A stretch of 64,000 nt of DNA. It comes from a virus. Its lineage: Duplodnaviria; Heunggongvirae; Uroviricota; Caudoviricetes. The stretch is from the IMG/VR virus record IMGVR_UViG_2585427754_000004; one strand, 5' to 3'. The notes below the pieces were generated by a model. The model searched no databases and had not been told where the DNA came from. It saw nothing but the letters and a program-made list of their open reading frames with translations. Numbering within the stretch: position 1 is the stretch's first letter; each line of letters opens with the position of its first letter. Of the stretch, positions 1 through 24,739 are shown piece after piece. A program made the position numbers and the translations under genes.

Positions 1-568
1 TTCCATCAACAGCGGCTCTGGCGCGTGGATAGATATGCGTAACCAGAACGTCATCTTCGGGAGGAACGCTGTAAGTACAAGCTCTGCACAAGCGTTGTTG
101 AGACAAGACCACGCGGATCGCAAATTCTTCTTGGGTGGCTTGGGAAACAGTCAGTTTGGTTTTTACATGATCAACAACTCACGTACCGCAAACGGCACGG
201 ATGCGAACGCATACCTCCAGAATGATGGTACTTGGGTTTGTGGCGGTAATGGCAGCTTTAATGACGTTTATATCCGCTCTGACCGTCGTAGCAAACGCAA
301 TATTCGCAAGATTGAACGAGCGCTCGACAAGCTGGATCGGATCGAAGGTGTTCTGTACGAGATTCAGGTCTGTGACCGGTATGAGCAGTCTGGCGGCCTC
401 ATCGCTCAGGACGTCCAGAATGTTCAGCCTGAACTGGTAACGGTTGACCATAACGATCAGTCAGGAGAGCCTCGTCTGCGTCTTAACTACAACGGCGTTA
501 TCGGCATGTTGGTCGAGGCTGTCAAAGAGCTGCGCGAGGAAGTGCGCGAACTGAAGGCAAAAATGTAA
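1..568 (+). CDS. Tail fiber protein, C-terminal part with intramolecular chaperone (peptidase S74-like) domain; 5' end outside window
   Basis: Translation contains YIRSDRRSKRNIRKIE and GGLIAQDVQNVQPELV, matching the autoproteolytic chaperone domain of phage tail fibers and endosialidases. Open reading frame runs in from the window edge. Confidence 0.7.
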   Translation, partial: SINSGSGAWIDMRNQNVIFGRNAVSTSSAQALLRQDHADRKFFLGGLGNSQFGFYMINNSRTANGTDANAYLQNDGTWVCGGNGSFNDVYIRSDRRSKRNIRKIERALDKLDRIEGVLYEIQVCDRYEQSGGLIAQDVQNVQPELVTVDHNDQSGEPRLRLNYNGVIGMLVEAVKELREEVRELKAKM

Positions 569-634
569 TCAAGGTGAATGGTGAGGGGCCACCCTCACCA
601 ATTCAGGATATTCACATCAAAAAGGAGATTAGAT

Positions 635-1417
635 GTGCCAATTGTCGGTGTTCCCGGTTGGATTGGGTCTTCGGCTGTCAGTGTGACAGGCCAGAGATGG
701 ATGAGTGCAGCTCGAACGGCGGTGCAATTGTCTGCTGCTGGGAATATGTCTCAGTTAGCAGGTCGTTCTAAGGAAATTCAGTACAGCATCGGTGCGAATC
801 ATAACTACAACAAAGACACACTGATCAACTATTTAAAATCCCAGGGGGCGACGCCAGTCGTTGTTACCATTACAGGGGATCTGGTGTCGTCCAGTAGCGG
901 CGTGCCATGTTTAGATTTCCCGAGTTCACTTACCAACTCTTATATCAGCCTTGTAATCAACGCAGGTGTGACTGTCTATGGACGCGGTGGCAATGGTGGT
1001 AGTAACGCTGCCGGTGCTGCTGGTGGTAACGCAATTAATAATGGCATCGGTACACGCTTGCGTATTACGAATAATGGTGCAATCGCTGGAGGTGGCGGCG
1101 GCGGTGGCGGCGGTAACAGGGGTAAACTAATATTTGGCGGCGGCGGTGGTCGCCCATTCGGTGCTGGTGGGTCTTCCTCTCATATGAGTTCCGGTGCAAC
1201 TGCTGGTACTATTTCCGCTCCTGGTAAAGGATCTGTTGGTGAGGGGTCTCTTAGTGCATATACAGGCGGTTCGGGTGGTAATGTCGGTGCTGCTGGAGGA
1301 AGATGTAATACTCAAGGTAACGGTACAGAATATAACGGCGGAGCAGCTGGTAAAGCTGTTACTGGTAATGCTCCAACTTGGACTAAAGTTGGGGCAATTT
1401 ACGGCGCTCATGTGTAA
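635..1417 (+). CDS. Glycine-rich protein, candidate tail-fiber adhesin or host-range determinant
   Basis: Sits directly after the tail-fiber gene. Several poly-Gly tracts (GGGGGGGGGN, FGGGGGRPFGAGG) separate short variable segments, as in T2-type gp38 adhesins. Start uncertain: GTG at 635 follows AAGGAG by 7 nt; ORF track gives 578. Confidence 0.4.
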   Translation: MPIVGVPGWIGSSAVSVTGQRWMSAARTAVQLSAAGNMSQLAGRSKEIQYSIGANHNYNKDTLINYLKSQGATPVVVTITGDLVSSSSGVPCLDFPSSLTNSYISLVINAGVTVYGRGGNGGSNAAGAAGGNAINNGIGTRLRITNNGAIAGGGGGGGGGNRGKLIFGGGGGRPFGAGGSSSHMSSGATAGTISAPGKGSVGEGSLSAYTGGSGGNVGAAGGRCNTQGNGTEYNGGAAGKAVTGNAPTWTKVGAIYGAHV

Positions 1418-1479
1418 GTACTTACCTACCAAGTGTGGGCGTTTTATGATATAAAACCGCCATCCCGATTTGACGATTC

Positions 1480-1815
1480 ATGGAGGAAATAATGTCGAAC
1501 GAGATGGCAGGCGTAACGCCAGAGCAGGTAGAGCGCATTGCCGCTATCGTTGCGCGTGAAGTTGTCGGCAAATTAGGTAAGGAGTTGCGTGAGGAAATTG
1601 GCCAGGAGGTCAACGACCAGCTCAAAACCTACTTTGGCGATATGACGCCTTCGCAACACAGCATTCAGCACTCCAACCTGGACAAACTACTTAATCGGCT
1701 AGACGCCATCTCCAGCGGGTTCTTTGGCGGCATTATCTCAAAGATAACGTCGTTCCTGATTACCGCGCTGCTGCTGGGTCTGGCCGCTTATGGCGTGAAG
1801 AATGGACTGCAATAA
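1480..1815 (+). CDS. Small protein with C-terminal transmembrane helix (holin candidate)
   Basis: 111 aa with C-terminal hydrophobic segment ITSFLITALLLGLAAYGV; lies at the head of the lysis cassette. Confidence 0.3.
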   Translation: MEEIMSNEMAGVTPEQVERIAAIVAREVVGKLGKELREEIGQEVNDQLKTYFGDMTPSQHSIQHSNLDKLLNRLDAISSGFFGGIISKITSFLITALLLGLAAYGVKNGLQ

Positions 1816-1828
1816 CAGGAGATCAAGG

Positions 1829-2521
1829 ATGAAAACTCCGAGAGGCATTCGTAATAACAACCCTGGCAACCTCGACAAAGGTTCGCCGTGGCAGGGGCTA
1901 ATCGACAACCCTGCCGAACCGCGCTTTTGCACGTTTAAAGACCCTGTTTGGGGGATTCGTGCGCTGGCGGTGACTCTAATTACCTACCACGATAAACGTC
2001 GCGCAAAAGACGGCACAAGTATCGATACCATTCGTGAAGTTATTGAACGCTGGGCACCGCCGAATGAAAACAATACTGACGCCTACATTAATGAGGTGTC
2101 TAAAGCCGTTGGTGTAACCGCAGACATGATCATCGATCTGCATGATTACGACATCCTTCGACCTTTGGTTGAGGCAATCATTCGCCACGAGAATGGCCGA
2201 GGCCCGCTAAAAACGCTGAACACCTGGTATGCGGCAGAAGTTATTGAGGAAGGTCTGCGTCGAGCTGGCGTTGTTAAGCCGGTGAAAACCGTGAAGGCTG
2301 TTCCTGTAACTAAAGAAACCGCAGGCGCAACTGTTACAGCAGGTATTGGTCTGGCGCAGCTGGCCGATGTTATGCCGCAGGTTTCCGCTGCTATGGATAA
2401 AGCACAAGGTCATATCTCTAGCGGGGATACAGTACGCATCATCTTCGGTATTGCCACTATTGTTGTGGCAGGATTCATTGCCTGGTCGCAGGTAAGAAAA
2501 CACCAGAAAGGGATGGTCTAA
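1829..2521 (+). CDS. Conserved phage protein with N-terminal RGIRNNNPGN motif and C-terminal membrane anchor; lysis-associated candidate
   Basis: ATG at 1829 preceded by AGGAG. C-terminal hydrophobic helix IIFGIATIVVAGFIAWSQV. Sits between the holin candidate and the spanins. Enzymatic class not established. Confidence 0.3.
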   Translation: MKTPRGIRNNNPGNLDKGSPWQGLIDNPAEPRFCTFKDPVWGIRALAVTLITYHDKRRAKDGTSIDTIREVIERWAPPNENNTDAYINEVSKAVGVTADMIIDLHDYDILRPLVEAIIRHENGRGPLKTLNTWYAAEVIEEGLRRAGVVKPVKTVKAVPVTKETAGATVTAGIGLAQLADVMPQVSAAMDKAQGHISSGDTVRIIFGIATIVVAGFIAWSQVRKHQKGMV

Positions 2522-2522
2522 T

Positions 2523-2774
2523 ATGCTAGGCAGCCTGATGACAAAGCTAAAAGTTGCTTTGATTACGCTGGCTGCCGTTCTTTTCGTTCTTGTCGGCGCT
2601 TACACGATGGGCGGGAATGCGGCGCGACGAGCAATGGAAGAGAAGGCAAAACAGGAAGACAGAAAACGACTTCAAAACACAGTGAAAGTGGTGAATGAGA
2701 CGAGCAGTAAAATACGTCAGAAAGATGCTTCTGCCGTTCATCGTGAGTTGTATGATAAGTGGGTGCGTCATTAA
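2523..2774 (+). CDS. Inner-membrane spanin (Rz-like)
   Basis: N-terminal transmembrane segment followed by a charged coiled-coil region; overlaps the next gene in the classic Rz/Rz1 arrangement. Confidence 0.5.
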   Translation: MLGSLMTKLKVALITLAAVLFVLVGAYTMGGNAARRAMEEKAKQEDRKRLQNTVKVVNETSSKIRQKDASAVHRELYDKWVRH

Positions 2775-2910
2775 ACCACAAACAGCCAGCGTGTTGTTCT
2801 GCGATGGGGCTGAGCCTATCTATATCAGCAATAATGATGTAATGACTGAAGAAACCGAACGCCAAATCCTTTTTCACAATACGATGGGAGAGAGGGTTTG
2901 TGGTTGGTGA
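2695..2910 (+). CDS. Outer-membrane lipoprotein spanin (Rz1-like), start embedded in the Rz-like gene
   Basis: Signal peptide with lipobox (MISGC), short mature region with Cys residues, +1-frame overlap with 2523..2774. Confidence 0.5.
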   Translation: MRRAVKYVRKMLLPFIVSCMISGCVIKPQTASVLFCDGAEPIYISNNDVMTEETERQILFHNTMGERVCGW

Positions 2911-2942
2911 TGTCGAAGTTCCCCTCAAATGAGGGGAACACA

Positions 2943-3464
2943 TTATTCGTCGAACAATTTTTCGATAGATTTTGTAGGATAGAACAAAGAACGCTCGTTG
3001 TTACCAACCAGCTGGATAAAGCCTAAACTTTTATAAAACGCCTTGGCTTTGTCATTTAACGCCTCAACGAAAAGTCCATGAATGCCTACAGCAAGAGATG
3101 CATTGTACACAACGCGCATTGCATGTGTTACAAGCATTGAGCCAAATCCTTGACCTTGAAGGGACTTGTCCAAAGCCAGCCTACCCAAAGTAACACTTGG
3201 AACATTCCGATAAGGAACCTTCTTTTGTTTGCTTCTTGAAGGTAAGGACTCCTTTTCAAAACAACTACCTGACAAAGTGTAATATCCTAACACTTTTGGC
3301 CTTTCTTCTTGAGTGCAAAGCACATAAGCACGAAGAATTTTTCCCTCATGCTGCCTTTTTAAGTGGTTGGCTAAAAAGGCGTTTAGTGACTCTTCGCCGC
3401 AATCAAAACCGTTTAGATCATAATCTTTCTCTCCAGAGAAAATCTCTATCGTTGTATTGCTCAC
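2943..3464 (-). CDS. GNAT-family acetyltransferase toxin (TacT/KacT-like) of a type II toxin-antitoxin pair
   Basis: 173 aa with acetyl-CoA-binding signature QGQGFGSMLV; 7 bp downstream of a DUF1778-type antitoxin gene on the same strand. Confidence 0.75.
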   Translation of the reverse strand: MSNTTIEIFSGEKDYDLNGFDCGEESLNAFLANHLKRQHEGKILRAYVLCTQEERPKVLGYYTLSGSCFEKESLPSRSKQKKVPYRNVPSVTLGRLALDKSLQGQGFGSMLVTHAMRVVYNASLAVGIHGLFVEALNDKAKAFYKSLGFIQLVGNNERSLFYPTKSIEKLFDE

Positions 3465-3471
3465 GAGTAAA

Positions 3472-3741
3472 CTACTCCATGCTTTTCAGACGATCAGCAG
3501 CTCGTTTCAGCTTGTCGTTCGGTGCCGGAGGATTGCTTATAGCGTCCATAACCAGATTCCAGGATTCTTCATTCAGAACTAGTCTACGGTGTTGCTCTAT
3601 AACTTTCACGGCACGTTCAGATGCACTGCTAACCATAAACTGAGTAATGCTCTGGTTAGACATTGCGGCAGCTTCCTCGATGATGCTTTTATCGTCATCG
3701 GTTAATCTCAAATCGATGCGCTGCTTTTTTAGTGCTGACAT
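3472..3741 (-). CDS. DUF1778 ribbon-helix-helix antitoxin (TacA/KacA-like)
   Basis: Translation MSALKKQRIDLRLTDDDKSIIEEAA ... NPPAPNDKL is typical of DUF1778 antitoxins. ATG at 3741 (minus strand) preceded by AGGAGG; ORF track extends to 3780. Confidence 0.7.
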   Translation of the reverse strand: MSALKKQRIDLRLTDDDKSIIEEAAAMSNQSITQFMVSSASERAVKVIEQHRRLVLNEESWNLVMDAISNPPAPNDKLKRAADRLKSME

Positions 3742-3752
3742 GTATTCCTCCT

Positions 3753-3779
3753 GATGGCCGTGATGTAGGAAGGCCATCA
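3753..3779. promoter_or_regulatory. Inverted repeat TGATGGCC-N11-GGCCATCA upstream of the antitoxin gene (candidate autoregulatory operator)
   Basis: Perfect 8-bp arms immediately 5' of the antitoxin ribosome-binding site. Confidence 0.35.
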
Positions 3780-4059
3780 ATCTCCTCTGTTCAAACTGAG
3801 TTTTCGACTCAAAAATTACTTTAAAAGGCTATAGCCCATTACGTGTGCATTATCAAATTGTGTACGGCATATCACCGTACTTGTAATATAGATGTCATTG
3901 TTACTTTTTTCAACAGACAAATACAAGCTATGTTTGCCAATTGTTAATCACAACCTACCATTTAACCTTTACACCGCAGCCGTAGGCATTTAGGCTATAT
4001 CACATATAAGAAAACAAGTTGTTTCAGACGATAATTATATACGCAAAGGGAACTCTCCA

Positions 4060-4728
4060 ATGACCAAGATCTTTGTGGTTGGCGGCACAAAGGGCGGGCC
4101 TGGCAAATCCACCGTTGCCCAGCAAATTGCCGTTTGCCTGAAAGTCAAAAAGAAGAAGAAGGTTTATATTACCGATATAGATATTCAGCGCACGACAACG
4201 AGCTGGTGTGAAGACCGTCGACAGAACGAAGACCTTGAGCTGATTCCTTTTGCATACGTTCAGGATGACATCATTAAGCACCTAAAATCGCTTCAGGGTA
4301 GAGCTGAGTTTGTAGTGGTAGATGCTGGTGGCTTCGACTCCGAAATTCAGCGACAAGCGATGCTGATGGCTGACGTTATCATTATCCCGCTGCGTCCTAA
4401 GCGTCGTGATTTGAAATCTTTACGTGACATCGATCCTATTATCGACAATGTTCGCAATGTAAACGATAAAGTGAAGGTCCGCGCGGTCATGAACCAGTGC
4501 CCGGCTTTGCCATCACAAGTGTCTCGCATTCTGGCGGCTAAAGAGATTGTTGAGACGTTTGGAATCGAGTCTGCGCCAGTCAATCTATATAACCGCAACG
4601 TCTATGATGATGCGGAAGAGTCTGGTCGCTCTATCTTTGAAATGACCGGTAGCGAGCGCGACAAAAAGGCGGAAGCCGAGTTTGAAGAATTTGTAGATTA
4701 TCTGTTGAGTCTGGAGGAAGAAGAATAA
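4060..4728 (+). CDS. parA: ParA-family partition ATPase (small type Ib)
   Basis: Deviant Walker A GGTKGGPGKST at the N-terminus; 222 aa; followed by a small RHH protein. Confidence 0.75.
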   Translation: MTKIFVVGGTKGGPGKSTVAQQIAVCLKVKKKKKVYITDIDIQRTTTSWCEDRRQNEDLELIPFAYVQDDIIKHLKSLQGRAEFVVVDAGGFDSEIQRQAMLMADVIIIPLRPKRRDLKSLRDIDPIIDNVRNVNDKVKVRAVMNQCPALPSQVSRILAAKEIVETFGIESAPVNLYNRNVYDDAEESGRSIFEMTGSERDKKAEAEFEEFVDYLLSLEEEE

Positions 4729-6182: not shown

Positions 6183-6932
6183 GTGAGCCACATGAGCCAA
6201 ATCTTTTTCGATACCATCGACAACGACCAGTACGACTTCATGACAGAGTGGAATACCGCTGTTATGGACAAGTGGGTCGCTGAAAACATTGGTTTGTCGC
6301 GCTGTAAAGATGAGGCTGAACTCTTCGAGACGAAGTGGTTTGATTACCGCGACATGCATCCTCTGATGGCCACCTGTCTATTTACGGAGGCATACAAACG
6401 TCAGTACTCAAATATCATGCTGACGCACGGTCGCGAACACTTTGAAACAGCTCCGTTCACCACCGGGTTAAAACGCCTGCCTTATCAGGAGTTGTCGACT
6501 GCCAATAAAACGTCGCTATGGAAAGCACGCCAGTTTGCGGATCGCTATTGCTGCTCATACGACTACTTTATCTCCACCGTTCTTTCCGCAGCTGCACGAC
6601 GGCTGTGGGACAAGCTGCCGCGTCCGCAGCATTTGTGGCAGCCAGAACTGATTGAGATATTTGAAGATAAATTAGCCAGACGCGCAACAACCCGTCTGGA
6701 TGACTCTCTGGTTAGCTTTAAGCATATGGGAGACATGCAGTTCAACCCGATTCAGGAAAGCTATTTTGAGTGGATTCTGGAGCGTTTGCGCACCATCCCC
6801 CGCAGCAAGCGCATACGCGCAATTTTCTCCGCTATCTGGCTAATGGAAATCGTTCCAGAGCGCCTTATTTCCGCCCACTTTCCAGAAGAACTGGAAGAAG
6901 CACGGCGGTTTATTGATCCCCTATCTAATTAA
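6183..6932 (+). CDS. Hypothetical protein (immediately upstream of the helicase)
   Basis: 249-aa ORF with upstream TAAGTA palindrome motif; no recognisable motif. Confidence 0.35.
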   Translation: MSHMSQIFFDTIDNDQYDFMTEWNTAVMDKWVAENIGLSRCKDEAELFETKWFDYRDMHPLMATCLFTEAYKRQYSNIMLTHGREHFETAPFTTGLKRLPYQELSTANKTSLWKARQFADRYCCSYDYFISTVLSAAARRLWDKLPRPQHLWQPELIEIFEDKLARRATTRLDDSLVSFKHMGDMQFNPIQESYFEWILERLRTIPRSKRIRAIFSAIWLMEIVPERLISAHFPEELEEARRFIDPLSN

Positions 6933-6975
6933 CTAATACTAGAAAACAATTTGTTTAAAAAACAAAGGAAAGCAC

Positions 6976-8316
6976 ATGACCGAACTTTGCCATACAGGAC
7001 GCGGGCTGTCCGAAGAGTTTGATGAAGATTTTCAGAACAGATTGACGGCCTATTTTTGTCGTGATCACGAGTTTCTTACTCGTGCTGGAGATCTGGTTGT
7101 ACCTAGCCAATTTGCCAATGCGGCCAATGCCATATTGGTTAATATGGTTTCGGGCTATTACCGTATGTACAAGAGCGCGCCCTCTTCATCTGCGATTCTG
7201 GATATGCTTAAGCGTGCGAAACGCGATAAGACTATCCGTGAGGAACTATTCGCCGATGTTGTTGCTGCGTTTAAGCGCATCCTTGCAGAAAAATTGTCTG
7301 ATACCTCGTACATGGTTGACCAGGTATCAACCTTCGCAAAAAGTGTAGCGTTTGATGATGCTCTGATTAAGGCTGCTGAACTGAAAGAGAAAGGCGACTT
7401 TCAGGGGGCGATGGCAATCATGGCCAAGGTTCAGCAGATTGGATCGAACGAAGCGACCGGAATCTATGACTACTACACCTCCGCAAGTGAGCGATTGAAG
7501 GCGCGTGAATATGAGGCTTCAGAGGAGTATGTGCCAAACAGCATTACAACTGGACTCCCTCTGCTCGATAGGTTGCTGTACCAAAAAGGCTGGGCGAAGC
7601 GTGAAATGGTGCTCTTCATGGGGTTCGCTAAATCCGGTAAATCGACCGCAATGGGTGAGTTTTCCATAAACGCAACACTTGCTGGCTACAATGTTCTGTA
7701 TCTCTCGCTGGAGGTTCACACCACCATTTTATCCGACCGTTTTGATGCAAGATTGTCGGAGACAGAAATGTCCAAGCTGGTGGAACGGCGCGATGAGGTT
7801 CATCGTAAGTTGGCAGAGTTGGGAGCCACGAAGGGGATTGGTAGTTTGTGGGTGGTTGAGCGTCCGTCAGGAAGTATGTCACCGGCAGATCTGGACCGTA
7901 TGCTTAACAGCATGAAAGCCAACGGCATGGTACCTGACATGGTTGTTGTCGACTACGCAGATTTGATGCGTGCCAGTTATGACCTTCGTGATGATCGCGC
8001 CAACATTCGTAGTATCTACACCGATTTACGTGCTCTTTATGACAAGCATAACGTTGCTGGGATCACGGCATCGCAGACAAACCGTGAAGGTGGCGCGTCA
8101 GAAGTTGCCACAATGATGCACGCTGCCGACAACATCGAAAAAGTACGTATTGCTGACCTGGTAATAACGATCAACAAAACCGAAGAAGAAGAAGCGAAAG
8201 GAGAGGCTCGTCTCTACTTTGCTGGTTCACGTAACCAGCAGGGAGGGATCAGCATTCGCGTTAAACAAAACCTCGAACAAATGCGCTTCATTGAGCGAAT
8301 CTTAGACGTTACCTAA
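6976..8316 (+). CDS. DnaB-family replicative DNA helicase
   Basis: Walker A GFAKSGKST, Walker B VVVDYADLM, RecA-like C-terminal domain; conserved upstream AAACAAnTTGTTT motif and shared translation-initiation sequence. Confidence 0.7.
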   Translation: MTELCHTGRGLSEEFDEDFQNRLTAYFCRDHEFLTRAGDLVVPSQFANAANAILVNMVSGYYRMYKSAPSSSAILDMLKRAKRDKTIREELFADVVAAFKRILAEKLSDTSYMVDQVSTFAKSVAFDDALIKAAELKEKGDFQGAMAIMAKVQQIGSNEATGIYDYYTSASERLKAREYEASEEYVPNSITTGLPLLDRLLYQKGWAKREMVLFMGFAKSGKSTAMGEFSINATLAGYNVLYLSLEVHTTILSDRFDARLSETEMSKLVERRDEVHRKLAELGATKGIGSLWVVERPSGSMSPADLDRMLNSMKANGMVPDMVVVDYADLMRASYDLRDDRANIRSIYTDLRALYDKHNVAGITASQTNREGGASEVATMMHAADNIEKVRIADLVITINKTEEEEAKGEARLYFAGSRNQQGGISIRVKQNLEQMRFIERILDVT

Positions 8317-10486: not shown

Positions 10487-10969
10487 ATGGCGGTAGTTGT
10501 GAAAGCTGATTTGTCAAAAATCCCTTCTATTTCAGGAAATAACGGTTATTCACTTCGTTGTGAGGAAGTAAAGATAAACGGTGAGTCGGCATATTGCAGC
10601 TATTCCGTTTGCCAGCACACCATTCTTGCCTTCAAAGAAAACCGTCTTCCTCGAACTTCTTTCCAGTCGTGCGCAACCGCTATTAAAGCAGGCAAATGCA
10701 AGGCGTTAAAAATGATGGTTGAAGAGATTCGTAAAGGAGAATCTCTGTATTTCGAAGATATGACCGCGCTCATTAAGGAGGTTGAAGAACGGAATAAACA
10801 AGCCAGAACTATAAAACGAAAACGTGACAGTGTAACGATTAATAGCATGGTTAAGAAGAGCACCACATCACAAACAGCGATCACTGACGTGTATGCGGCG
10901 TTGCTTGAAGAAACAACAAAAGAAACACATGAGCAAATCGATCAACATATGGAGGCAAAACAACAATGA
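10487..10969 (+). CDS. Hypothetical protein
   Basis: 160-aa ORF; stop overlaps the ligase start. Confidence 0.3.
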   Translation: MAVVVKADLSKIPSISGNNGYSLRCEEVKINGESAYCSYSVCQHTILAFKENRLPRTSFQSCATAIKAGKCKALKMMVEEIRKGESLYFEDMTALIKEVEERNKQARTIKRKRDSVTINSMVKKSTTSQTAITDVYAALLEETTKETHEQIDQHMEAKQQ

Positions 10970-12288
10970 AAAAGTTGATCGCACTTAAGCATAAGCTGGA
11001 CGAAATGAAAGCTATGGGAACCAATGCAAAAAAAGAGGCATTGGCCAACATGGATGACTTCGAGCAAAGCATGGTTTCATTGATGCTCAACCCTTTCATC
11101 CGTTTTGGGGTAAAGAAATACAAAGTGGCAGAGCCGCTTAGTGAGTCCGTCCCAAGTGACGAAAAAGCCATTGATATACTGAATAAGCTGGCCTCTCGCG
11201 AGCTGACGGGGAACGCAGCAATAGCTGCTGTTGAGTCTATCGTGGCGTCAATGTGCGCCGATGGGCAGGACGTGTTCCGTCGTTTCCTCTTAAAAGATCC
11301 GAAAGCTGGCGTTGGGATTAGCCTATGCAACAAGGTTTTTGAAAATCCCATTCCGAAATTTGAGGTGCAGCTGGCGTCACCGTATAAAGAAAAAGGCGAC
11401 AAATACCCCTTCAAGCCAAATCCTAAAGCCAAATGGCCGATGATTGGCAGCCTTAAGCTCGATGGTTTGCGAGTAATTTGTGAGGTTATTGTTGACGAGG
11501 AAGAGGTGAACTTCCTTTCTCGTACTGGTAATCCAATCACGTCTCTCGATCACCTAAAGCCAGCCATGCTCGAATTAGGCAAACTTTCAGGCCACAAACA
11601 CATCTTCTTCGATGGTGAAGGAACAGCCGGTTCATTTAACCAGTCCGTATCTGCATTGCGCAAAAAGAACGTGCAGGCAATTGGCGCTATTTATCATGTT
11701 TTCGACTTCTTCCTACCGGAATGGCGGGCACAGGCTAAATCCAAAGAGTATGCAAAGACAGGTATGAAGCTGAAAGAGCGCCTGGCTATGCTCGTGGCGT
11801 TGTTCAAAAACGATCGCAGTGAAGGCTACGCACAAGACATTCACCTGCATCCGTTCTATATCATCCATAGCCACGAAGACTTCATCGAACGCTTCATGAA
11901 ACGCCTGGACGATAACGAAGAAGGGGAGATGGGCAAAGATCCGAACTCTGTTTACGAGTTTAAACGTACCCGCAGCTGGTGGAAGTTAAAAGACGAAGAT
12001 TCAGAAGATGGTGAAATTATCGATTTTGAGCCGGGCGATCCGGACTCTGGTTTTGCCAACACGCTTGGAAAAATTGTTATTCGCCTTGAAAACGGTGTGA
12101 TTGTTCGTGCGAGCGGCATTAAGCATAAATATCTGGACGAGATCTGGAACAACAAAGAGAAGTACCGTGGTCGTATTGTCGAGGTTCATTGTCACGAGAA
12201 AACGCAGGATGGCAGCTTACGCCACCCACGACTGAAATGGCCGCGTTGCTTACGCGATACAGAAGATCGAATCGGAGATAAAGAATGA
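10966..12288 (+). CDS. ATP-dependent DNA ligase
   Basis: Adenylation motif I KLDGLR (KxDGxR) and C-terminal lysine-rich motif; 440 aa. Confidence 0.7.
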   Translation: MKKLIALKHKLDEMKAMGTNAKKEALANMDDFEQSMVSLMLNPFIRFGVKKYKVAEPLSESVPSDEKAIDILNKLASRELTGNAAIAAVESIVASMCADGQDVFRRFLLKDPKAGVGISLCNKVFENPIPKFEVQLASPYKEKGDKYPFKPNPKAKWPMIGSLKLDGLRVICEVIVDEEEVNFLSRTGNPITSLDHLKPAMLELGKLSGHKHIFFDGEGTAGSFNQSVSALRKKNVQAIGAIYHVFDFFLPEWRAQAKSKEYAKTGMKLKERLAMLVALFKNDRSEGYAQDIHLHPFYIIHSHEDFIERFMKRLDDNEEGEMGKDPNSVYEFKRTRSWWKLKDEDSEDGEIIDFEPGDPDSGFANTLGKIVIRLENGVIVRASGIKHKYLDEIWNNKEKYRGRIVEVHCHEKTQDGSLRHPRLKWPRCLRDTEDRIGDKE

Positions 12289-13875: not shown

Positions 13876-13950
13876 GATGGTGTAGCTCAGCGGTAGAGCA
13901 GTTGGCTGTTAACCAACTGGTCGGTGGTTCGAATCCACCCACCATCGCCA
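13876..13950 (+). tRNA. tRNA-Asn (anticodon GTT)
   Basis: Cloverleaf folded by hand: acceptor GATGGTG/CACCATC, anticodon loop CTGTTAA, T-arm GGTGGTTCGAATCCACC, discriminator G then CCA. Confidence 0.85.
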
Positions 13951-13955
13951 ATTTA

Positions 13956-14042
13956 GGGGAGTTAGTCCGTAGGGGCAGCGGGGTAGACTGTAAATCTACT
14001 GTCATTGCGACTCGGGTGGTTCGACTCCATCACTCCCCACCA
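13956..14042 (+). tRNA. tRNA-Tyr (anticodon GTA), type II with long variable arm
   Basis: Acceptor GGGGAGT/ACTCCCC, anticodon stem-loop GTAGA-CTGTAAA-TCTAC, T-arm GGTGGTTCGACTCCAT, CCA encoded. Confidence 0.8.
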
Positions 14043-14046
14043 AATT

Positions 14047-14122
14047 GCCGGTTTAGCTCAGTTGGTAGAGCGTCTGCCTTGTAAGCAGGATGTCAGCGGT
14101 TCGATCCCGTTAACCGGCACCA
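14047..14122 (+). tRNA. tRNA-Thr (anticodon TGT)
   Basis: Acceptor GCCGGTT/AACCGGC, D-arm GCTC ... GAGC, anticodon loop CTTGTAA, T-loop TTCGATC, CCA encoded. Confidence 0.75.
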
Positions 14123-14442
14123 ACACAACAGGTAAGAGCATTGGGCGAATCGGCGATACTGACCCACAAGCCCGTAAATCGATAGAGTCAGACCAGTGCT
14201 CTTACCGTTGTGAGGAAGTGCAGCTCTTTGAAGCAACCAGAAGATAAGCATCTGGCTTCACAACACAACGATAAGATCATTACGGTTAATCGTCGTTCAT
14301 GTGCACAATGACTGGTCGAAAGGTAGTGATCTTACCGTTGTGATGAATGCACAGGCTGATGTGCCGCAACTACAGTAGTGCGCGCTTTGCGGGGCTTGCT
14401 ACAACCCTGTGTCGGAGTTCAGCACCGACCATCACAATAGCT

Positions 14443-14529
14443 GGAGAGTAGGGAGCATGGTGCTCAAGCGGTCTTGAAAACCGTCCCATTGCGCAAGCGA
14501 TGATGGTTCGATTCCATTACTCTCCGCCA
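14443..14529 (+). tRNA. tRNA-Ser (anticodon TGA), type II
   Basis: Acceptor GGAGAGT/ACTCTCC, anticodon loop CTTGAAA, long variable arm, T-loop TTCGATT, CCA encoded. D-arm is atypical. Confidence 0.7.
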
Positions 14530-15553: not shown

Positions 15554-16657
15554 ATGAAAAATAGCTTTGACAGAGCACGCGCTGCGGAGAACACCTCAAA
15601 AGAGGCGATTGAGTATCTCGAAAGAGCATCTCAAATGCAGGCCGTTATGATCTCCCAGGTTAGCAATGACATGAGATTCTCGGACGCATTCATGTTATTC
15701 ACTCGCTTATCTCTGCTGATAACCAGACGTCGGCCAGAGATCGCTGTTCATTGTATTTTGATACATGTTTTGCCGCACATTGCCGATGTAAAAGTAAGTG
15801 ATATTAATAGGTTCATGGTGAACCAACTGGTCAACCCACTAATACTGGATGGCAAAATTGTTATGGGCCGCCGCGTTTTCTCTCTGATGAAGCAGTTCCT
15901 TAGCTGGTGCGCCTTCCAGGGGATGATAGACGTGTCACCGTTAAACGATATGTCACTTAACAAAGTTGCCGGTGGCGCAAAGCCCACGCCCCGCGAGCGG
16001 AAGCTGACTGACGCAGAGGTATGGGTGTTCTGGAATATATGGGACTACTTCAATGTGTGCGCTGGTACAAAATGGGCGGCCAGACTGTGTCTTGTATCAG
16101 CAAGACGACCTGACGAAGTACTGCGGGCTAAAAAAAGTGAGTTCAATCTTAAGCGTGGGGTTTGGAATCAAGGCAAGAGGAACAAATCTGCCCGTGAGCA
16201 TTCTCTGCCTTTAAGCTCATTAATGCGCACTTGTATTGAAGAGTTGTTCGAATATGGTAAAGACAGCCAGTGGCTCGTGCCTTCGAATAAAAAAATCGGG
16301 AAAGACCTTCCTATGTCTAAAGTGGCAATAGCCCAGGCATTACGTCGTATTCTGGAACGACCAGAACTGATGGAGCTTGAGCCATTTACACCCCGAGATT
16401 TGCGCCGTACTGCGCGTAGTTACTTCCCAGCATTAGGCATAAGCCAGGAGGTATCACGTAAAATCATGAACCACAGTCTTGAGGGGATAGATCGGGTCTA
16501 CGACCGTCACGATTATATGGACGAGATGCGAGACGCCTTAGAAAGTTTCTCGACGTACATCGCATCAATCGTAGAGCAACCGGATTTAGACGAAATTGAC
16601 CACAAATTTAAGGGAGATCGTCTATCAACAGAGCTTATTCGTGTAAATTTTTCATAG
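15554..16657 (+). CDS. int: Tyrosine recombinase / integrase
   Basis: C-terminal catalytic-domain pattern with Arg (RRPDEV), His and RDLRRTARS, then HS ... VYDRHDY carrying the putative Tyr. N-terminal start uncertain. Confidence 0.7.
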   Translation: MKNSFDRARAAENTSKEAIEYLERASQMQAVMISQVSNDMRFSDAFMLFTRLSLLITRRRPEIAVHCILIHVLPHIADVKVSDINRFMVNQLVNPLILDGKIVMGRRVFSLMKQFLSWCAFQGMIDVSPLNDMSLNKVAGGAKPTPRERKLTDAEVWVFWNIWDYFNVCAGTKWAARLCLVSARRPDEVLRAKKSEFNLKRGVWNQGKRNKSAREHSLPLSSLMRTCIEELFEYGKDSQWLVPSNKKIGKDLPMSKVAIAQALRRILERPELMELEPFTPRDLRRTARSYFPALGISQEVSRKIMNHSLEGIDRVYDRHDYMDEMRDALESFSTYIASIVEQPDLDEIDHKFKGDRLSTELIRVNFS

Positions 16658-17600: not shown

Positions 17601-19709
17601 ATGTCTAAAAAACGTTCCATCAAAGAGGTTCAGGACTTCCGTGACAGTGTAAAACGAGTAGTCGCTCTCCTTTCAGGTAAAAACATCCCTGTTGCAGAAC
17701 GAGGGGACGACGCTTATGTACGCTATAACGATGATGGAGAGCCAATTCTCGTAAACATCCCATCAATCCCGGATAACGCAACACCGGCATTGATGAATGC
17801 TGTGCGCGGATTTCTCGATCATGAGGTTGCTCACATTTTGTTTACCGATATTCGTGTGTCCAACAAAATGAGAGAAAAAGGACGCGTTCCTTCCTGGTCG
17901 CTATGGAATGCCTTAGAAGACGTGTTCATCGAGCGAAAAATGGGTCAGGTCTTTAACGGAACAAGACGTAATCTGATGGCAACTCAGCGCCTTATAATCG
18001 AAAAAGTCTTTAAACCAAAGGCTTCAGAGGCTATTGCTTATTGTGGCAAAGATCAGCGCGCGCTTTTTCTAAACTTCTTTCTCTGTCCGGTTGTAAGAGC
18101 CTGGGATGGCCAAGCACCGTTCGTAGATTTCATGGATGAATATTGGCCTGTCATTGAGAAACCAATTTCATTATTAAAAGAACATGGTATCGATGTGGCC
18201 GTGCGTAACATGTCTTGCACCGAGGATTGTGTAAAGGTGGCTGCGACCATAGCTAAGATCCTCAAAGACACTGAAAGTGAAAGCAAAGGTAAGGAGTCAG
18301 CTCCGGGAAAAACTTCCGATCCTTCAGACGCTGACCAGACGGATGCCTCTGGAGAAAACAATGAAGACAACGAAGATCATGAGACACCCTCATCGTTAGA
18401 TAATCACAAATCTATTAAATCAGAGTCACATAGTAAGCACAAACATGATAATAACGACAGTGATGATTCAGATAATCCTGAATCATCAGAAACAATATTC
18501 GATGATACAGAAAATGATAAAGCGGTATCAGATTCTGATGCTTCTGATAACGCGGCGTCAGAATCATTAACCGCTGACCACGAAAAAAGAAAAACGACAG
18601 AAGACGGCTCTTCAGACATTCCAACTCCGTCAAAAATGAGTCTGGAAGAGGCTTTAGAGGAGTTGGATAGCATGGAAGATGAAGTCGGAGGCATGACAGA
18701 AGATGCGCTATCCGAAACGATTAAAAGCGAGTTAACAGAAAGCTCGAAAAGCGAATACAGGCCATACAATCGCTCATACGACTTCATCGGCTCGATTGAT
18801 CAGGCAGAAGCCCATATCAAACGGCTTATTAAAACATTCTCCGATATTGATTTAGGTGGATATCCAATCAGCCGTTATCGCATCGTTCCTGAAGGCAACC
18901 AACTCTTCGACAAATATATTGAAAAGCACCTTTCGTCAGGTGTTTCGTCGACGCTGGCAAAAGACCTGGAACGTGCAATAGCAAGCAGAAACAGAGTTCA
19001 GTTTATACCTGGCCAGCGTCGGGGGCGCATTCATGGTTCAAGTATCTACAGATTAACAATGAATGATGATCGCGTGTTTCGTAAAAAAGAAGAATCTAAA
19101 GCCGTTAACGCCTGTGTTCAACAAGTGATTGATTTATCGGGTTCAATGAGTGGCGAAACGATAAAACTAGCTCTTGCAAGTGCATATACCATCGCCGATG
19201 CACTTGATCGAATAAATGTTCCCAACATTATCACCGGCTTCACTACATTTGGCAGTCATATGGCAGCAGGAGAACTTAAGGCTATCAAATATGAGTTCTC
19301 TCGCTTTGAATCTTTAATGCTACCTATCATCAAAAATTGGAATGAAAAAGCAAATTCTCGCGAAGTTCGCTCACGTATGGGGTGCGTAGGCTACACATTC
19401 CCACTTCTTAATAACGTGGATGGTGAAAGCATAGCCAGCCTTGCATCGTTATTTTCCGGTCGCTTGGAGGACAGGAAGATCATGCTTGTTCTGAGTGATG
19501 GCGCGCCGTGGGCTGTTGGGAGAGGTTTTGACGCTCATTTGCGTTCAGTTGCGAAGCAAATTGAAACGCAGACTGACATTGATTTGATGGCAATTGGCAT
19601 CATGACTGATGCACCGGAGAGATTTTACTCAAATCATGCCCTGGTAACGAGCGTTGATAGTCTTGGTTCATCTGTAGTTACTGAACTATCTCGTATCATT
19701 TTAAAGTGA
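17601..19709 (+). CDS. von Willebrand factor A (vWA) domain protein with long acidic Ser/Asp-rich insertion (CobT-like)
   Basis: MIDAS motif DLSGSMSGET in the C-terminal half; roughly 150-aa low-complexity acidic region in the middle; conserved upstream motif. Confidence 0.55.
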   Translation: MSKKRSIKEVQDFRDSVKRVVALLSGKNIPVAERGDDAYVRYNDDGEPILVNIPSIPDNATPALMNAVRGFLDHEVAHILFTDIRVSNKMREKGRVPSWSLWNALEDVFIERKMGQVFNGTRRNLMATQRLIIEKVFKPKASEAIAYCGKDQRALFLNFFLCPVVRAWDGQAPFVDFMDEYWPVIEKPISLLKEHGIDVAVRNMSCTEDCVKVAATIAKILKDTESESKGKESAPGKTSDPSDADQTDASGENNEDNEDHETPSSLDNHKSIKSESHSKHKHDNNDSDDSDNPESSETIFDDTENDKAVSDSDASDNAASESLTADHEKRKTTEDGSSDIPTPSKMSLEEALEELDSMEDEVGGMTEDALSETIKSELTESSKSEYRPYNRSYDFIGSIDQAEAHIKRLIKTFSDIDLGGYPISRYRIVPEGNQLFDKYIEKHLSSGVSSTLAKDLERAIASRNRVQFIPGQRRGRIHGSSIYRLTMNDDRVFRKKEESKAVNACVQQVIDLSGSMSGETIKLALASAYTIADALDRINVPNIITGFTTFGSHMAAGELKAIKYEFSRFESLMLPIIKNWNEKANSREVRSRMGCVGYTFPLLNNVDGESIASLASLFSGRLEDRKIMLVLSDGAPWAVGRGFDAHLRSVAKQIETQTDIDLMAIGIMTDAPERFYSNHALVTSVDSLGSSVVTELSRIILK

Positions 19710-21220: not shown

Positions 21221-24200
21221 ATGAAGGCACTGATGGTTCGAACTGACTTCTCACTTGGGGAGTCGGCTCTAAAAGCAGAAAACGCGGTGAAGATTGCCAG
21301 AGAAGCTGGCTACACCGCTGTAATTTCAGCAGATAGCATGAATATTGCGAGCGTTATTCCACTACAACGTGCCGCTGGTGACGACATGGCGGTTATTTGT
21401 GGTGTGAAACTAAACATTGTTGATGATCCCACATACGAACACCGGGCTAAACTTGCTAAAGAATCTATGAGATGTATGGAATCATTAGAGCGGGGACGTA
21501 ACTACTCGTTTACCGCTCTAATTAAAAATGAGCAAGGATATCGCGACATCTGCGAACTAATGACGGCGGCCAACACACGAGAACAGTTCTACTTTGTACC
21601 GCGTCTCTCGCTCGAACAGTTGGTTTCTACATATGCCAAAGGCAACATCATCCTGCTTACTTCCGACATCGGTAGCGTGTTCCAACGCAACGATTTTGCA
21701 AAAATCATAAGCACACTGATTACAGCGGGTGGAAAAGACAACTTCTATAGTGTGGTTTATCCGCACCCTACCCCATTCTACGACCAGATTAACGTCCGGG
21801 CGATGAAAGTCGCCAGCGCATTGAAAATAGAGCCAGTGGCGTTCTATCCCGCTTATTACGAATCGATCGACGATGCAGACATTAAAGACATCGCGCACAT
21901 GGTTACGAACAACATCAAAATCGACCAGCCGCATCGTCTGCGTATCCCCCACCAGCGAGATAACGCCGTCAATGGTCGCCGCCATCTCCTTGAGGCGCTT
22001 AAAGCCTTCTCCGTTCGCATGGATGTGCCTGTAACAGCTGCAATGGCCTCAACAACGCAGGATACCATTATCGATTCCTGCACATGGCGCTGGCATGAAT
22101 TGCCACCAGCACTGCCAAAGATGGCAGACGACGAGCCTGCAACGCTTATGAAACTGGCTGTTGCAGGGCTGCGTAAACGTCTTACCACAAAAGAGTTTGG
22201 CTACACACCACCTGCTTCTGAGAACAGGGTTTATGTTGAGCGGCTAAAGTACGAAATGGACACGCTGACTCGCCTGGGATTTTGTGGTTACTTCCTGATG
22301 GTACGCGATCTGATGAATCATAGTCGTGAAACTGGCATTCCCGTTGGGCCTGGTCGTGGTTCCTCTGCCGGTTCTCTGGTGGCGTGGTGCATAGGCATAA
22401 CCAACGTCGACCCAATCCGTCACGGTCTTCTGTTTGAGCGTTTCATCAACCCTGAGCGTCTCGACTTGCCGGATGCGGACTTGGACTTCAGCCAGGCACG
22501 TCGCCATGAGGTGATCGAGTATCTGAATGAACGCTACGGCGAAGATTACGTTGCGGGTATTCCGAACTTCACCTACCTGGGCGCAGCCTCTGCACTACGT
22601 GATACCGCTCGTATTTATGGTGTGGAGTCCGCAGATATGGCGGTATCAAAAGAACTGAAGAACGCTGAGGATGATAGCCTTCCATTGGAAGAACTGCGCG
22701 AACAACTGGCAAGTCTCGACAAATACGCAACAAAATATCCTGATGCATTCAATGCAGCCTGCAAGTTACAAAGCCTTATGCGTGGCTTTGGTAGACATGC
22801 GGCAGGGATGATCGTAGCAGGTGTTCCTCTGACAGAACGTACACCGGTTGAGCGCCGTGGTGACGCGCGTTGTATCGCATTTGACAAGCGTTACTGCGAG
22901 GCTATGGGCCTAATTAAGCTGGACGTGCTTGGCCTGGCAACTCTCGATTTGCTCGATAGTGCAAAACGCTACATAAAAGAGAACACAGGTGAAGATATCA
23001 ATCTTGATGCCATTTCTCTTGAAGATCGCAAGGTGCTGGATGGTTTTGCTGCTGGGTACACTCAAGGTGTTTTCCAGCTTGAATCAGGCCCAATGCGCAA
23101 GCTGCTTAAAGATTTAGGTGGTGGAATTGAGCCAATGAGCTTTAAAACGGTCGTCGCTACAACTGCGCTCTTCCGGCCGGGGCCAATTCAATCAGGCATG
23201 TTGGATGACTATGTTTCTGTCGCCAAAGGCTTTATGACGCCGGAATCATTACACCCCGTTCTTGATGAACTTACCGCGGAAACAAATGGCGTGATTCTCT
23301 ATCAGGAACAGACGATGAACGCGACTCGATTGCTTGCCGGCTTCACAATGGCTGAAGCTGACGCTGTGCGTTCCGCAATCGGTAAGAAGAACATGGAAAA
23401 AATGAAGAGCATGGGCGAGAAGTTCATCGTTCAGGCTCAAGCTGGCTGGATAGACGTTGAGCTGGAAGATGGCACTACACAGCGCATTCACCGTGCGGAA
23501 CATTTTAAATGCGAAGACGGAACTCTGAAAACTGTCGAAGAGGCACTTGAGCACGGCGCAAAACTACCTATAAACGCAGTACGCGTTACAGCGTCACATC
23601 CAGGGCTATCAGAGATGAAAGCGAAGGAGATCTGGACCGCATTTGAGAAAAACGGAGCCTATCAGTTCAATAAATCACACTCCGTTGCTTATTCTTTAAT
23701 CAGTTATCAGTCTATGTGGCTAAAGACGCACTACCCTGCTGAGTTCTTCGCAGCTGCGCTCACCATTCTGGGCGAGGATAAGCATCAGGGGCTGGTGAAG
23801 GATGCGCTGACCTATGGCATTCGCGTATTGCCACCAGACGTTAATGTGTCATCTAACCGAATTGAGATCCGCACACTCGAAGACGGCAGTCAGGCACTGT
23901 ATGCGCCATTCTCTGCTGTGAAAGGCTGTTCTGAAAATGGTTGTCAGGCAATTATGCGTGCGCGTGAGAAAGTTGGTGGCAAATTCGAGTCAGTGGCACA
24001 ATTCGATGAAGCGGTCGAGAAGCGTGCATGTAACAGTCGTGTACGCGAGTCGCTTCATAAAGTAGGGGCTTTTGCGTCAATTGAGCCAGGCAGTCTGCCA
24101 GCAACTGATCCTGAACGACTGCGCGACCAGGCTGAGCTGATGGGCAATCTCATCATTGACGCTGTTAAAGCATCACGTCCGTTCGAAATGAATCCTAAGC

Positions 24201-24739
24201 GTTCTGCCGAAATCAACGTACTCATGACACGTATGGCGGCTGAAATGGGCTTGGGTGAGGAGTTGATACGCCCGACTATTGGTATTAAACCCAAAATCAT
24301 GATCATTCTGGACAATGCGAACGGCAATGACGCTCGTACCGGCTACTTCATGGAGAACGGATACGACGACTTTAAGGCAAAACTACTGACAGTTGGAGAT
24401 CTGCGCATGGGCGATCTTTATGTCACGGGTGTTTGTAAGAAGGTTAAGGACAAAGAGAAAGACTATACCAAAGACGAGATAGGCCAGTTCACAGACTTTA
24501 TGCGGGAAGAAATTAATCTTGTACGACCAACCTACATTTTGACGTGTGGTAGTCGTTCAACCGCACTATTTAACAATAAGAGTAAACCATCAGATCTGAT
24601 TGGTCGTAAGGAGTACTTCCCAGAGCTTGATGCAACCGTCTTCTACGGATTTAACCCGAATATCCTGTACTTCCGACCGGAAGAAGGAGAGCGACTGGAG
24701 GCCATTCTGGCTGATATCGCGGAGACAATAAATAAGTAA
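21221..24739 (+). CDS. dnaE: DNA polymerase III alpha subunit (DnaE-type replicative polymerase)
   Basis: 1172 aa; GPGRGSSAGSLVAW, FERFINPER, PDADLDF catalytic triad region and FNKSHSVAYSL ... HYPAEFFAA align with bacterial DnaE signatures. N-terminal PHP-like region lacks the usual His residues. Confidence 0.85.
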   Translation: MKALMVRTDFSLGESALKAENAVKIAREAGYTAVISADSMNIASVIPLQRAAGDDMAVICGVKLNIVDDPTYEHRAKLAKESMRCMESLERGRNYSFTALIKNEQGYRDICELMTAANTREQFYFVPRLSLEQLVSTYAKGNIILLTSDIGSVFQRNDFAKIISTLITAGGKDNFYSVVYPHPTPFYDQINVRAMKVASALKIEPVAFYPAYYESIDDADIKDIAHMVTNNIKIDQPHRLRIPHQRDNAVNGRRHLLEALKAFSVRMDVPVTAAMASTTQDTIIDSCTWRWHELPPALPKMADDEPATLMKLAVAGLRKRLTTKEFGYTPPASENRVYVERLKYEMDTLTRLGFCGYFLMVRDLMNHSRETGIPVGPGRGSSAGSLVAWCIGITNVDPIRHGLLFERFINPERLDLPDADLDFSQARRHEVIEYLNERYGEDYVAGIPNFTYLGAASALRDTARIYGVESADMAVSKELKNAEDDSLPLEELREQLASLDKYATKYPDAFNAACKLQSLMRGFGRHAAGMIVAGVPLTERTPVERRGDARCIAFDKRYCEAMGLIKLDVLGLATLDLLDSAKRYIKENTGEDINLDAISLEDRKVLDGFAAGYTQGVFQLESGPMRKLLKDLGGGIEPMSFKTVVATTALFRPGPIQSGMLDDYVSVAKGFMTPESLHPVLDELTAETNGVILYQEQTMNATRLLAGFTMAEADAVRSAIGKKNMEKMKSMGEKFIVQAQAGWIDVELEDGTTQRIHRAEHFKCEDGTLKTVEEALEHGAKLPINAVRVTASHPGLSEMKAKEIWTAFEKNGAYQFNKSHSVAYSLISYQSMWLKTHYPAEFFAAALTILGEDKHQGLVKDALTYGIRVLPPDVNVSSNRIEIRTLEDGSQALYAPFSAVKGCSENGCQAIMRAREKVGGKFESVAQFDEAVEKRACNSRVRESLHKVGAFASIEPGSLPATDPERLRDQAELMGNLIIDAVKASRPFEMNPKRSAEINVLMTRMAAEMGLGEELIRPTIGIKPKIMIILDNANGNDARTGYFMENGYDDFKAKLLTVGDLRMGDLYVTGVCKKVKDKEKDYTKDEIGQFTDFMREEINLVRPTYILTCGSRSTALFNNKSKPSDLIGRKEYFPELDATVFYGFNPNILYFRPEEGERLEAILADIAETINK

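Follow-up and report, generated by a model that had tools for sequence, protein, structure and literature searches.

A gp38-family adhesin with a probable T-even-type specificity cassette in a temperate SSU5-like Escherichia coli phage-plasmid

The adhesin gene and the element that carries it

The window, i.e., the whole stretch of 64,000 nucleotides that was analysed, opens within a tail-fibre gene, the stop codon of which is separated by a gap of 66 nt from the start of an intact ORF of 260 amino acids at positions 635-1417 on the + strand. This ORF begins with GTG at 635, is preceded by the Shine-Dalgarno sequence AAGGAG 7 nt 5' of the start, and its stop codon ends at 1417. The first-pass annotation had described a Gly-rich gene directly after a tail-fibre gene; its coordinates were found to be exact, and the upstream ORF ending at 568 was identified as a fibre by matches to PHROG 22609 and Peptidase_S74. 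The features of the locus are as follows:

2..568, + strand: 3' end of the tail-fibre gene, 188 codons (PHROG 22609 'tail fiber protein', E 1e-114)
278..568, + strand: C-terminal intramolecular chaperone of the fibre, Peptidase_S74 (Pfam PF13884, E 7e-12)
635..1417, + strand: gp38-family adhesin gene, 'receptor-recognizing protein' (PF05268, PF21721, PHROG 2056, 6f45_D, AlphaFold2 model)
635..766, + strand: predicted N-terminal attachment (docking) domain, aa 1-44 (Gp38_N match at residues 1-42; three predicted short helices)
767..964, + strand: first part of the predicted central beta-helix, aa 45-110 (AlphaFold2 strands; phage-plasmid-type composition, GC3 0.55)
965..1396, + strand: putative specificity cassette, aa 111-254, Gly-rich motifs and hypervariable loops forming a predicted polyglycine sandwich (identity to Bas45; GC3)
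1115..1135, + strand: hypervariable segment aa 161-167 (NRGKLIF), between the G9 and G5 runs (entropy 1.75 bits, block 161-170)
1169..1204, + strand: hypervariable segment aa 179-190 (entropy 2.09 bits)
1229..1264, + strand: hypervariable segment aa 199-210 (entropy 2.29 bits)
1298..1336, + strand: hypervariable segment aa 222-234 (entropy 1.3-1.8 bits)

Glycine accounts for 23.5% of the adhesin overall, for 6-13% in aa 1-110 and for 34% in aa 111-260; the protein contains a run of nine (G9, aa 152-160), a run of five (G5, aa 168-172) and eight GG pairs. ORFs in other frames overlap the gene at 978-1130, 1065-1199, 1127-1432 and 1194-1454 and are best read as by-products of its GGN-rich composition. 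A chance, low-complexity origin of the ORF at 635-1417 was ruled out because the protein matches curated family models over their full length; its homologues measure 258-262 aa and align from residue 1. A scan of positions 1-3000 of the window returned no promoters, with none above the shuffled expectation, and three terminator-like sites compared with 2.8 expected from shuffled sequence. An NCBIfam search yielded no match for the adhesin or its three neighbours.

The fibre gene starts upstream of the window; in plasmid CP059946, which is 99.3% identical, the full gene encodes 1455 aa. Within the fragment, the motif SDRRSK (nt 278-295) marks the start of the S74 chaperone, a region aligning with the SSDRRIKK region of gp37 of Salmonella phage S16 (6f45_A). 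Residues 65-187 of the fragment match S16 gp37 (6f45_A, E 3e-13), and residues 2-102 match fibre protein S of phage Mu (5yvq_A, residues 346-445, E 9e-35), the approximately 90 residues before SDRRSK being closer to Mu protein S than to S16 gp37. The chaperone is presumed to be auto-cleaved, which would bare the tip where the adhesin docks.

By its sequence, the window is assigned to a temperate SSU5-like E. coli phage-plasmid of approximately 108 kb. The opening 3 kb share 99.5% identity with the 107.6-kb record 'Escherichia phage CMS-2020a' (CP053388) and 99.3% with the 110-kb E. coli plasmid p2 (CP059946), and the window, SSU5 and CP059946 have a common gene order of fibre, adhesin, holin-like protein, endolysin, spanins, GNAT toxin with DUF1778 antitoxin, and ParA. 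Elsewhere in the window, Rep3, a DnaB-like helicase, a ligase, Pol III alpha, RNR, CobT-like genes and four tRNA genes are encoded, with phage and plasmid functions present side by side. SSU5-like phage-plasmids such as Cyrano make siphovirus particles (PMC9928086).

A near-identical gene was found in 35 of the 5,426 complete E. coli genomes, in 34 of them on a plasmid, and the gene occurs in 87 PLSDB plasmids from Enterobacter, Escherichia, Citrobacter, Salmonella and Shigella. Many of the tblastn matches to plasmids cover only ~67% of the query, which was not taken as truncation and which we attribute to masking of the Gly runs by the low-complexity filter. The PGAP label of the gene in near-identical public records is 'receptor-recognizing protein'; its family and function are therefore already known and correctly annotated. 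What goes beyond the first-pass annotation is that the carrier is a temperate SSU5-like phage-plasmid and no T-even phage, and that the gene had already been annotated. Recent work calls gp38 unique to Straboviridae (PMC12032242), and the carrier lies outside this T-even distribution; carriage by Straboviridae describes where gp38 occurs and is no defining trait of the protein family.

Family membership, predicted fold and hypervariable segments

The likeness to gp38-type adhesins of T2-like phages proposed in the first-pass annotation was borne out by both Pfam models of the family, with scores far above the gathering cut-off of 25 bits that applies to each. The match to PF05268 (phage tail fibre adhesin Gp38) covers profile positions 1-217 of 218 and scores 238.6 bits (E 9e-71); that to PF21721 (Gp38_N) covers positions 1-40 of 40 and scores 56.1 bits (E 4e-15). 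PHROG 2056 ('tail fiber protein; host specificity') matches over all of its positions (1-267/267, E 6e-93). Among proteins of known structure, the crystal structure of S16 gp38 (6f45_D) matches residues 8-258 with E 1e-47, and a second match is to the receptor-binding domain of PP01 gp38 (9v85) with E 3e-37.

Structure prediction, put forward in the first-pass annotation as one check on the assignment, led to the same two proteins. A single-chain AlphaFold2 model built on 56 homologues reached a pLDDT of 92.4 and a pTM of 0.83, and a Foldseek search of this model against the PDB gave significant matches only to 6f45_D (TM 0.79/0.83) and 9v85 (TM 0.76/0.88), the next entry having an E-value of 2.8. 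S16 gp38 consists of a three-helix N-terminal attachment domain, the helix apices of which carry conserved Trp residues that plug pockets on the gp37 trimer, of a five-ring beta-helix, and of a polyglycine-II sandwich built from Gly-rich motifs with hypervariable loops at its distal end (PMC6851490). All three parts, i.e., docking domain, beta-helix and polyglycine-II sandwich, are present in the adhesin according to the model, in which the N-terminal helices span residues 10-18, 23-29 and 38-41. The conserved W9 and W22 are present and position 37 is Asn, a site occupied by Trp in gp38 of the Tequatrovirus type. Of the 104 aligned sequences, 55 have Trp at this position; 29 homologues, that of phage JSE among them, have Tyr, and the whole phage-plasmid lineage has Asn or Ser. 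Because Asn replaces one of the three anchoring Trp residues, docking of the adhesin on the fibre may differ in detail from that in S16. Taken from homology, the assignment of the 635-1417 product as a gp38-type receptor-binding adhesin of the T2/T6/S16 kind is supported.

An alignment of the adhesin with 103 full-length homologues (104 sequences), drawn from a search of 5.8 billion proteins, revealed near-invariant Gly motifs, namely YGRGGNG, GG.AI.N.IG.RLRI.N.G.IAGGGGGGG, GGGGGRPFG, GG.GG..G..G and GGAAG.A..G..P.W..G, and most of the 44 invariant columns lie within them. Poly-Gly tracts separated by short variable segments, which the first-pass annotation had read from the single sequence, are evident here from a mean column entropy of 0.36-0.47 bits in the Gly motifs versus 1.75-2.29 bits in the blocks between them (1.75 bits for 161-170, 2.09 for 181-190, 2.29 for 201-210 and 1.82 for 221-230). 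In aa 111-260, mean identity to the query is 80% at non-variable positions versus 47% in the variable segments, as expected from the hypervariability suggested earlier; since the segment boundaries were drawn from the same alignment, this contrast is descriptive and constitutes no independent test. It agrees with the published scheme of Gly motifs and hypervariable segments (PMC3157838, PMC12032242).

The two ends of the protein vary separately, as evident from uncorrelated N-terminal and C-terminal identities across the 103 homologues (r = -0.04). Docking domains are 91-100% identical inside the phage-plasmid lineage versus 59-66% to T-even gp38, and among the 13 homologues with a phage-plasmid-type N-terminus, loop identity spans 11% to 95%.

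The specificity cassette and its predicted receptor

Comparison with gp38 of Escherichia phage Bas45 divides the gene into unequal parts. The proteins are 66% identical over aa 1-44, 73% over aa 45-110 and 97% over aa 111-260, with corresponding nucleotide identities of 59%, 67% and 94%, and every hypervariable loop of the adhesin is identical in Bas45 gp38. In sliding windows of 60 nt, identity to Bas45 is at most 75%, then 92-100% at approximately nt 970-1390, and then ~40%; blastn aligned the cassette with Bas45 gp38 at 95.5% nucleotide identity over 440 nt. In the adhesin gene, the first 110 codons have a GC3 of 0.50 and the last 150 codons one of 0.29 (0.27 when Gly codons are excluded), compared with 0.27-0.29 in Bas45 gp38 and 0.49-0.64 in the neighbouring phage-plasmid genes. 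Sliding identity, blastn and GC3 mark the same cassette. Of the cassette codons that differ from Bas45, 20 still encode the same amino acid and 4 encode another, which suggests purifying selection.

Relatives of the element delimit the cassette from the other side. The Enterobacter hormaechei phage-plasmid pHD8642-1 (L004) is 99.6% identical over nt 1-964, 64% identical over 965-1395 and 86% identical after that; the stretch shared at nt 1-964 comprises the end of the fibre gene and the first 110 adhesin codons. Correspondingly, the sliding windows in the first part of the beta-helix (nt 767-964) show 95-100% identity to this Enterobacter element and ~60-75% to Bas45. A near-identical fibre end combined with a different cassette lends support to the proposal of the first-pass annotation that the adhesin, rather than the fibre shaft, would set receptor specificity. 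The best T-even matches of the pHD8642-1 cassette are the Enterobacter phages CC31 and EnA02, with 72-73% over the full length; by its sequence, the cassette goes with host genus and not with phage lineage in this one case. Enterobacter and Citrobacter phage-plasmids carry other cassettes. Differences between the window and a second E. coli phage-plasmid, pXH988_2, are confined to approximately nt 1090-1330, a pattern that looks like a smaller exchange.

The simplest reading of this mosaic is that a cassette of ~430 bp (nt 965-1395) was most probably imported by recombination from a T-even-type gp38, its T-even origin being suggested by the near-identity to Bas45 gp38 together with the T-even codon composition. 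On the same reading, the junctions would lie in the conserved first Gly motif and in the conserved C-terminal sequence. The direction of transfer is read solely from base and codon composition. The receptor-binding part of the adhesin looks recently borrowed from a T4-like, OmpA-requiring phage. In T-even phages, the specificity determinant has been mapped experimentally to a segment of ~400 bp that holds the hypervariable segments (PMC3157838), and the size of the cassette fits this determinant.

Bas45 targets OmpA, as established by complementation of the defect (PMC8594841), and phage FL18 is likewise OmpA-dependent (PMC12032242). All four hypervariable segments are identical in the window adhesin, Bas45 gp38 and FL18 gp38, and over aa 158-253 the FL18 adhesin P0065 is identical to the window adhesin except for two residues. 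Closely related gp38 proteins, when compared without the N-terminus, recognise the same receptor, and such a phylogeny predicts the receptor (PMC12032242). Since the loops are shared with Bas45 and FL18, each of which needs OmpA, this outer-membrane protein of E. coli is predicted by homology to be the receptor of the phage-plasmid fibre.

In T-even phages, LPS or further parts of the fibre may also play a role in OmpA dependence (PMC3157838), and here, too, LPS or other tail proteins may contribute to recognition. A receptor other than OmpA is possible, with a low probability. In a broader form of this alternative, the gp38 would be functional and OmpA would be either not its receptor or not limiting for host range, with other fibre parts, the central tail tip or LPS dominating. 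The differences from Bas45 in the N-terminal and beta-helix parts (66% and 73% amino acid identity) would allow for this, as would the large separate tail protein of SSU5-like phages (SSU5_020) and the findings that a single receptor does not suffice for some T-even phages and that OmpA recognition can be affected by sequence beyond the hypervariable segments (PMC3157838). Against it stand the identity of all loops to those of two independently characterised OmpA-dependent phages and the predictive value of the gp38 phylogeny without the N-terminus (PMC12032242), and we regard it as improbable.

Far less probable is a role as an assembly chaperone in the manner of T4 gp38, absent from the virion, with the fibre itself binding the receptor. 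Several records do label close homologues (those of JSE, T6, RB49 and ime09) as 'distal long tail fiber assembly catalyst' or 'tail assembly protein'; these labels are best read as carry-over from T4 gp38, which is very different in sequence (PMC6851490). The adhesin matches the S16 gp38 chain that is seated on the fibre tip in crystal 6F45, the fibre has an S74 intramolecular chaperone of its own, and hypervariable loops suit a receptor-binding surface better. Least credible of all is the view that a defective plasmid prophage carries the gene as an unused relic, or that its T-even likeness reflects convergent composition and not transfer. In favour of this view, the fibre-gene end is the only other structural gene in the window. 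Against it, the ORF is intact and of full length, synonymous differences from Bas45 exceed amino acid differences in the cassette, the near-identical genes in 35 E. coli genomes and 87 plasmids are all intact enough for annotation, relatives make virions (PMC9928086), and convergence cannot produce a sharply delimited stretch of 440 nt with 95.5% nucleotide identity.

We conclude that 635-1417 very probably encodes the gp38-family adhesin of a temperate SSU5-like E. coli phage-plasmid of siphovirus type, equipped with a T-even cassette and with OmpA as the predicted receptor. In the proposed sequence of events, the fibre would trimerise via its own C-terminal S74 intramolecular chaperone, which would then cut itself off at SDRRSK. 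One gp38 would dock on the bared trimeric tip via the three-helix domain (aa 1-44), as judged from the crystal complex of S16 gp37 and gp38. According to the sequence and the predicted fold, the central beta-helix would bear the polyglycine-II sandwich of conserved Gly motifs, and the hypervariable loops between these motifs would touch the bacterial receptor. The phage-plasmid would have acquired the cassette at nt 965-1395 from a T-even phage, through exchange in the conserved Gly-motif and C-terminal sequences.

With the family of the gene known, the new point is a modest one, namely that a phage-plasmid backbone contains a cassette of apparent T-even origin with sharp boundaries. It would render the receptor of the phage-plasmid fibre readable from the cassette, OmpA being the one indicated here. 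Relatives in which an identical fibre end is combined with other cassettes occupy other host genera, and cassette differences would bear on the between-host spread of phage-plasmids, some of which carry resistance genes. As a cross-family mosaic, the gene also indicates that gp38 is not confined to Straboviridae, contrary to recent papers.

More tentatively, SSU5-like phage-plasmids and virulent T-even phages might share a single pool of gp38 specificity cassettes, with the cassette described here being a fairly recent import of Tequatrovirus or Krischvirus type; we consider this possible, yet somewhat on the doubtful side. If it were true, the resident phage-plasmid would constitute a standing reservoir of receptor-binding cassettes and would recombine with infecting T-even phages in either direction, coupling host-range evolution between unrelated virulent and temperate phages. 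A description of gp38 cassette exchange between virulent Straboviridae and a temperate phage-plasmid was not found in the searchable literature, such absence being no proof. By title or abstract, the publications found on gp38 together with SSU5 or phage-plasmids hold nothing on phage-plasmid adhesins, and fibres, adhesins and receptors go unmentioned in a large survey of phage-plasmids.

Comparison with known systems

The closest structural counterpart is S16 gp38 (6F45 chain D), to which the adhesin aligns over its full length with a matching predicted fold and the same three-domain plan; in both cases, the gene directly follows a fibre gene with a C-terminal S74 chaperone. The two differ in that identity in the structural alignment is 41%, in that the window adhesin has Asn at the third anchoring Trp and its fibre tip is Mu-S-like before the chaperone, and in that it resides on a temperate siphovirus phage-plasmid, whereas S16 is a myovirus of the Straboviridae.

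In sequence, gp38 of Escherichia phage PaulHMueller (Bas45, Tequatrovirus) resembles the adhesin in its length of 260 aa, its near-identical cassette, its GC3 and its identical loops, but has a diverged docking domain and a diverged first beta-helix part, and its flanking genes are unrelated.

Among phage-plasmids, the 'tail fiber adhesin' SSU5_022 of Salmonella phage SSU5 (178 aa) likewise follows the fibre gene, the 3' end of which is 96% identical to window positions 1-552, and likewise begins with a Gp38_N docking domain (E 3e-20). In contrast to the window adhesin, it is devoid of the GP38 domain (PF05268) and of Gly motifs, and its C-terminal 130 aa are unrelated (12-18% identity); moreover, SSU5 has three extra genes between adhesin and holin, including a Cor-like exclusion gene. 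Because the SSU5 adhesin joins Gp38_N to an unrelated C-terminal domain, this docking domain appears to be an adaptor for at least two kinds of receptor-binding domain, i.e., the gp38 type and the 130-aa SSU5 domain, a property that may serve host-range engineering.

T4 gp38 bears the same gene name, occupies the corresponding place behind gene 37, and has lent its product name to some annotations of gp38-adhesin homologues. According to the published description, T4 gp38 is very different in sequence, assists folding and has no role in host recognition, while S16-type gp38 caps gp37 (PMC6851490); the folding role described for T4 gp38 sets it apart from the window adhesin.

The cassette itself finds its nearest parallel in the swapping of gp38 cassettes among T-even phages (Trojet et al. 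2011; PMC3157838), where Gly motifs flank exchangeable hypervariable segments as they do here, with a size of ~400 bp compared with ~430 bp in the window. Unlike that exchange, the one proposed here would have crossed between a virulent phage of the Straboviridae and a temperate phage-plasmid.

The attachment domain and its fibre

At codon 37 of the adhesin gene (window 743–745), the site of the third 'conserved' Trp of the gp38 attachment domain, the gp38-family adhesin carries Asn. Across the alignment of 104 sequences, comprising the adhesin and 103 homologues, Trp was found at this position in 55 of 104; 29 homologues, among them the one from phage JSE, have Tyr, and Asn or Ser occurs where the N-terminus is of the phage-plasmid type. 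Given these differences at residue 37, docking to the fibre tip may be lineage-dependent. The fibre, too, is a mosaic, composed of Mu/P2-type and T-even-type modules; its portion directly before the S74 chaperone (window 2–310) closely resembles the tail fibre protein S of phage Mu over residues 346–445 of the latter (5yvq_A, E = 9e-35).

Possible exchange within the adhesin gene of other phage-plasmids

In the E. coli phage-plasmid pXH988_2, sliding-window comparison revealed 92–100% identity to the window over 971–1120 and 97–100% from 1331 on, whereas identity between those stretches (approximately 1090–1330) drops to 55–85%. This pattern looks like a smaller swap inside the same adhesin gene, confined to the inner hypervariable segments. 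For the adhesin cassette of the Enterobacter hormaechei phage-plasmid pHD8642-1 (1831–2289 of that element), the best T-even matches were Enterobacter phages CC31 and EnA02, with 72–73% over the full length. In this one case, the cassette tracks the host genus, not the phage lineage.

The other frames and strand of window 978–1454 contain overlapping ORFs of 44–101 aa (978–1130, 1065–1199, 1127–1432 and 1194–1454). The likeliest reading is that they are not genes but by-products of the GGN-rich sequence that encodes the adhesin.

Genes downstream of the adhesin

The adhesin gene is followed by a lysis cassette and, directly downstream of the lysis genes on the opposite strand, by a toxin-antitoxin pair. 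Window 4060–43474 is the plasmid and replication block typical for SSU5-like elements.

Features of the window downstream of the adhesin gene
1480–2910, lysis cassette, including a holin-like protein (111 aa; PHROG 5093, labelled function unknown)
1802–2521, endolysin ORF (PHROG 873 match)
2523–2774 and overlapping ORF 2695–2910, spanin genes
2943–3780 (−), adjoining GNAT-family acetyltransferase toxin and DUF1778-type antitoxin
4060–4728, ParA-like ATPase
6976–8316, DnaB-like helicase
10966–12288, ATP-dependent ligase
13876–14529 (+), four clustered tRNA genes (Asn-GTT, Tyr-GTA, Thr-TGT, Ser-TGA)
15554–16657, integrase-family protein
17601–19709, CobT-like VWA protein
21221–24739, Pol III alpha
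33844–34899 (−), Rep3 initiator
37857–39773, SbcC/SMC-like ATPase
41159–43474, class I RNR large subunit

The holin-like protein gave no Pfam match and the endolysin ORF no significant match to a Pfam family. The latter is named 'membrane protein' in RefSeq relatives, and its start is annotated at about 1829 in relatives as against 1802 for the ORF. The GNAT-family toxin comprises 173 aa and is named KacT-type in phage Cyrano.

Comparison with the adhesin of SSU5

The counterpart of window 635–1417 in Salmonella phage SSU5 is that phage's own adhesin, SSU5_022 (6589–7125; 178 aa). In SSU5, two membrane-protein genes and one Cor-like exclusion gene separate the adhesin from the holin, and these three additional genes are absent from the window. 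SSU5_022 shares the Gp38_N docking domain with the window adhesin but differs in its C-terminal domain, which is unrelated, non-glycine and without a match in Pfam or PDB. Despite the unrelated adhesin C-terminus, the 3' end of the SSU5 fibre gene is 96% identical to that of the window.
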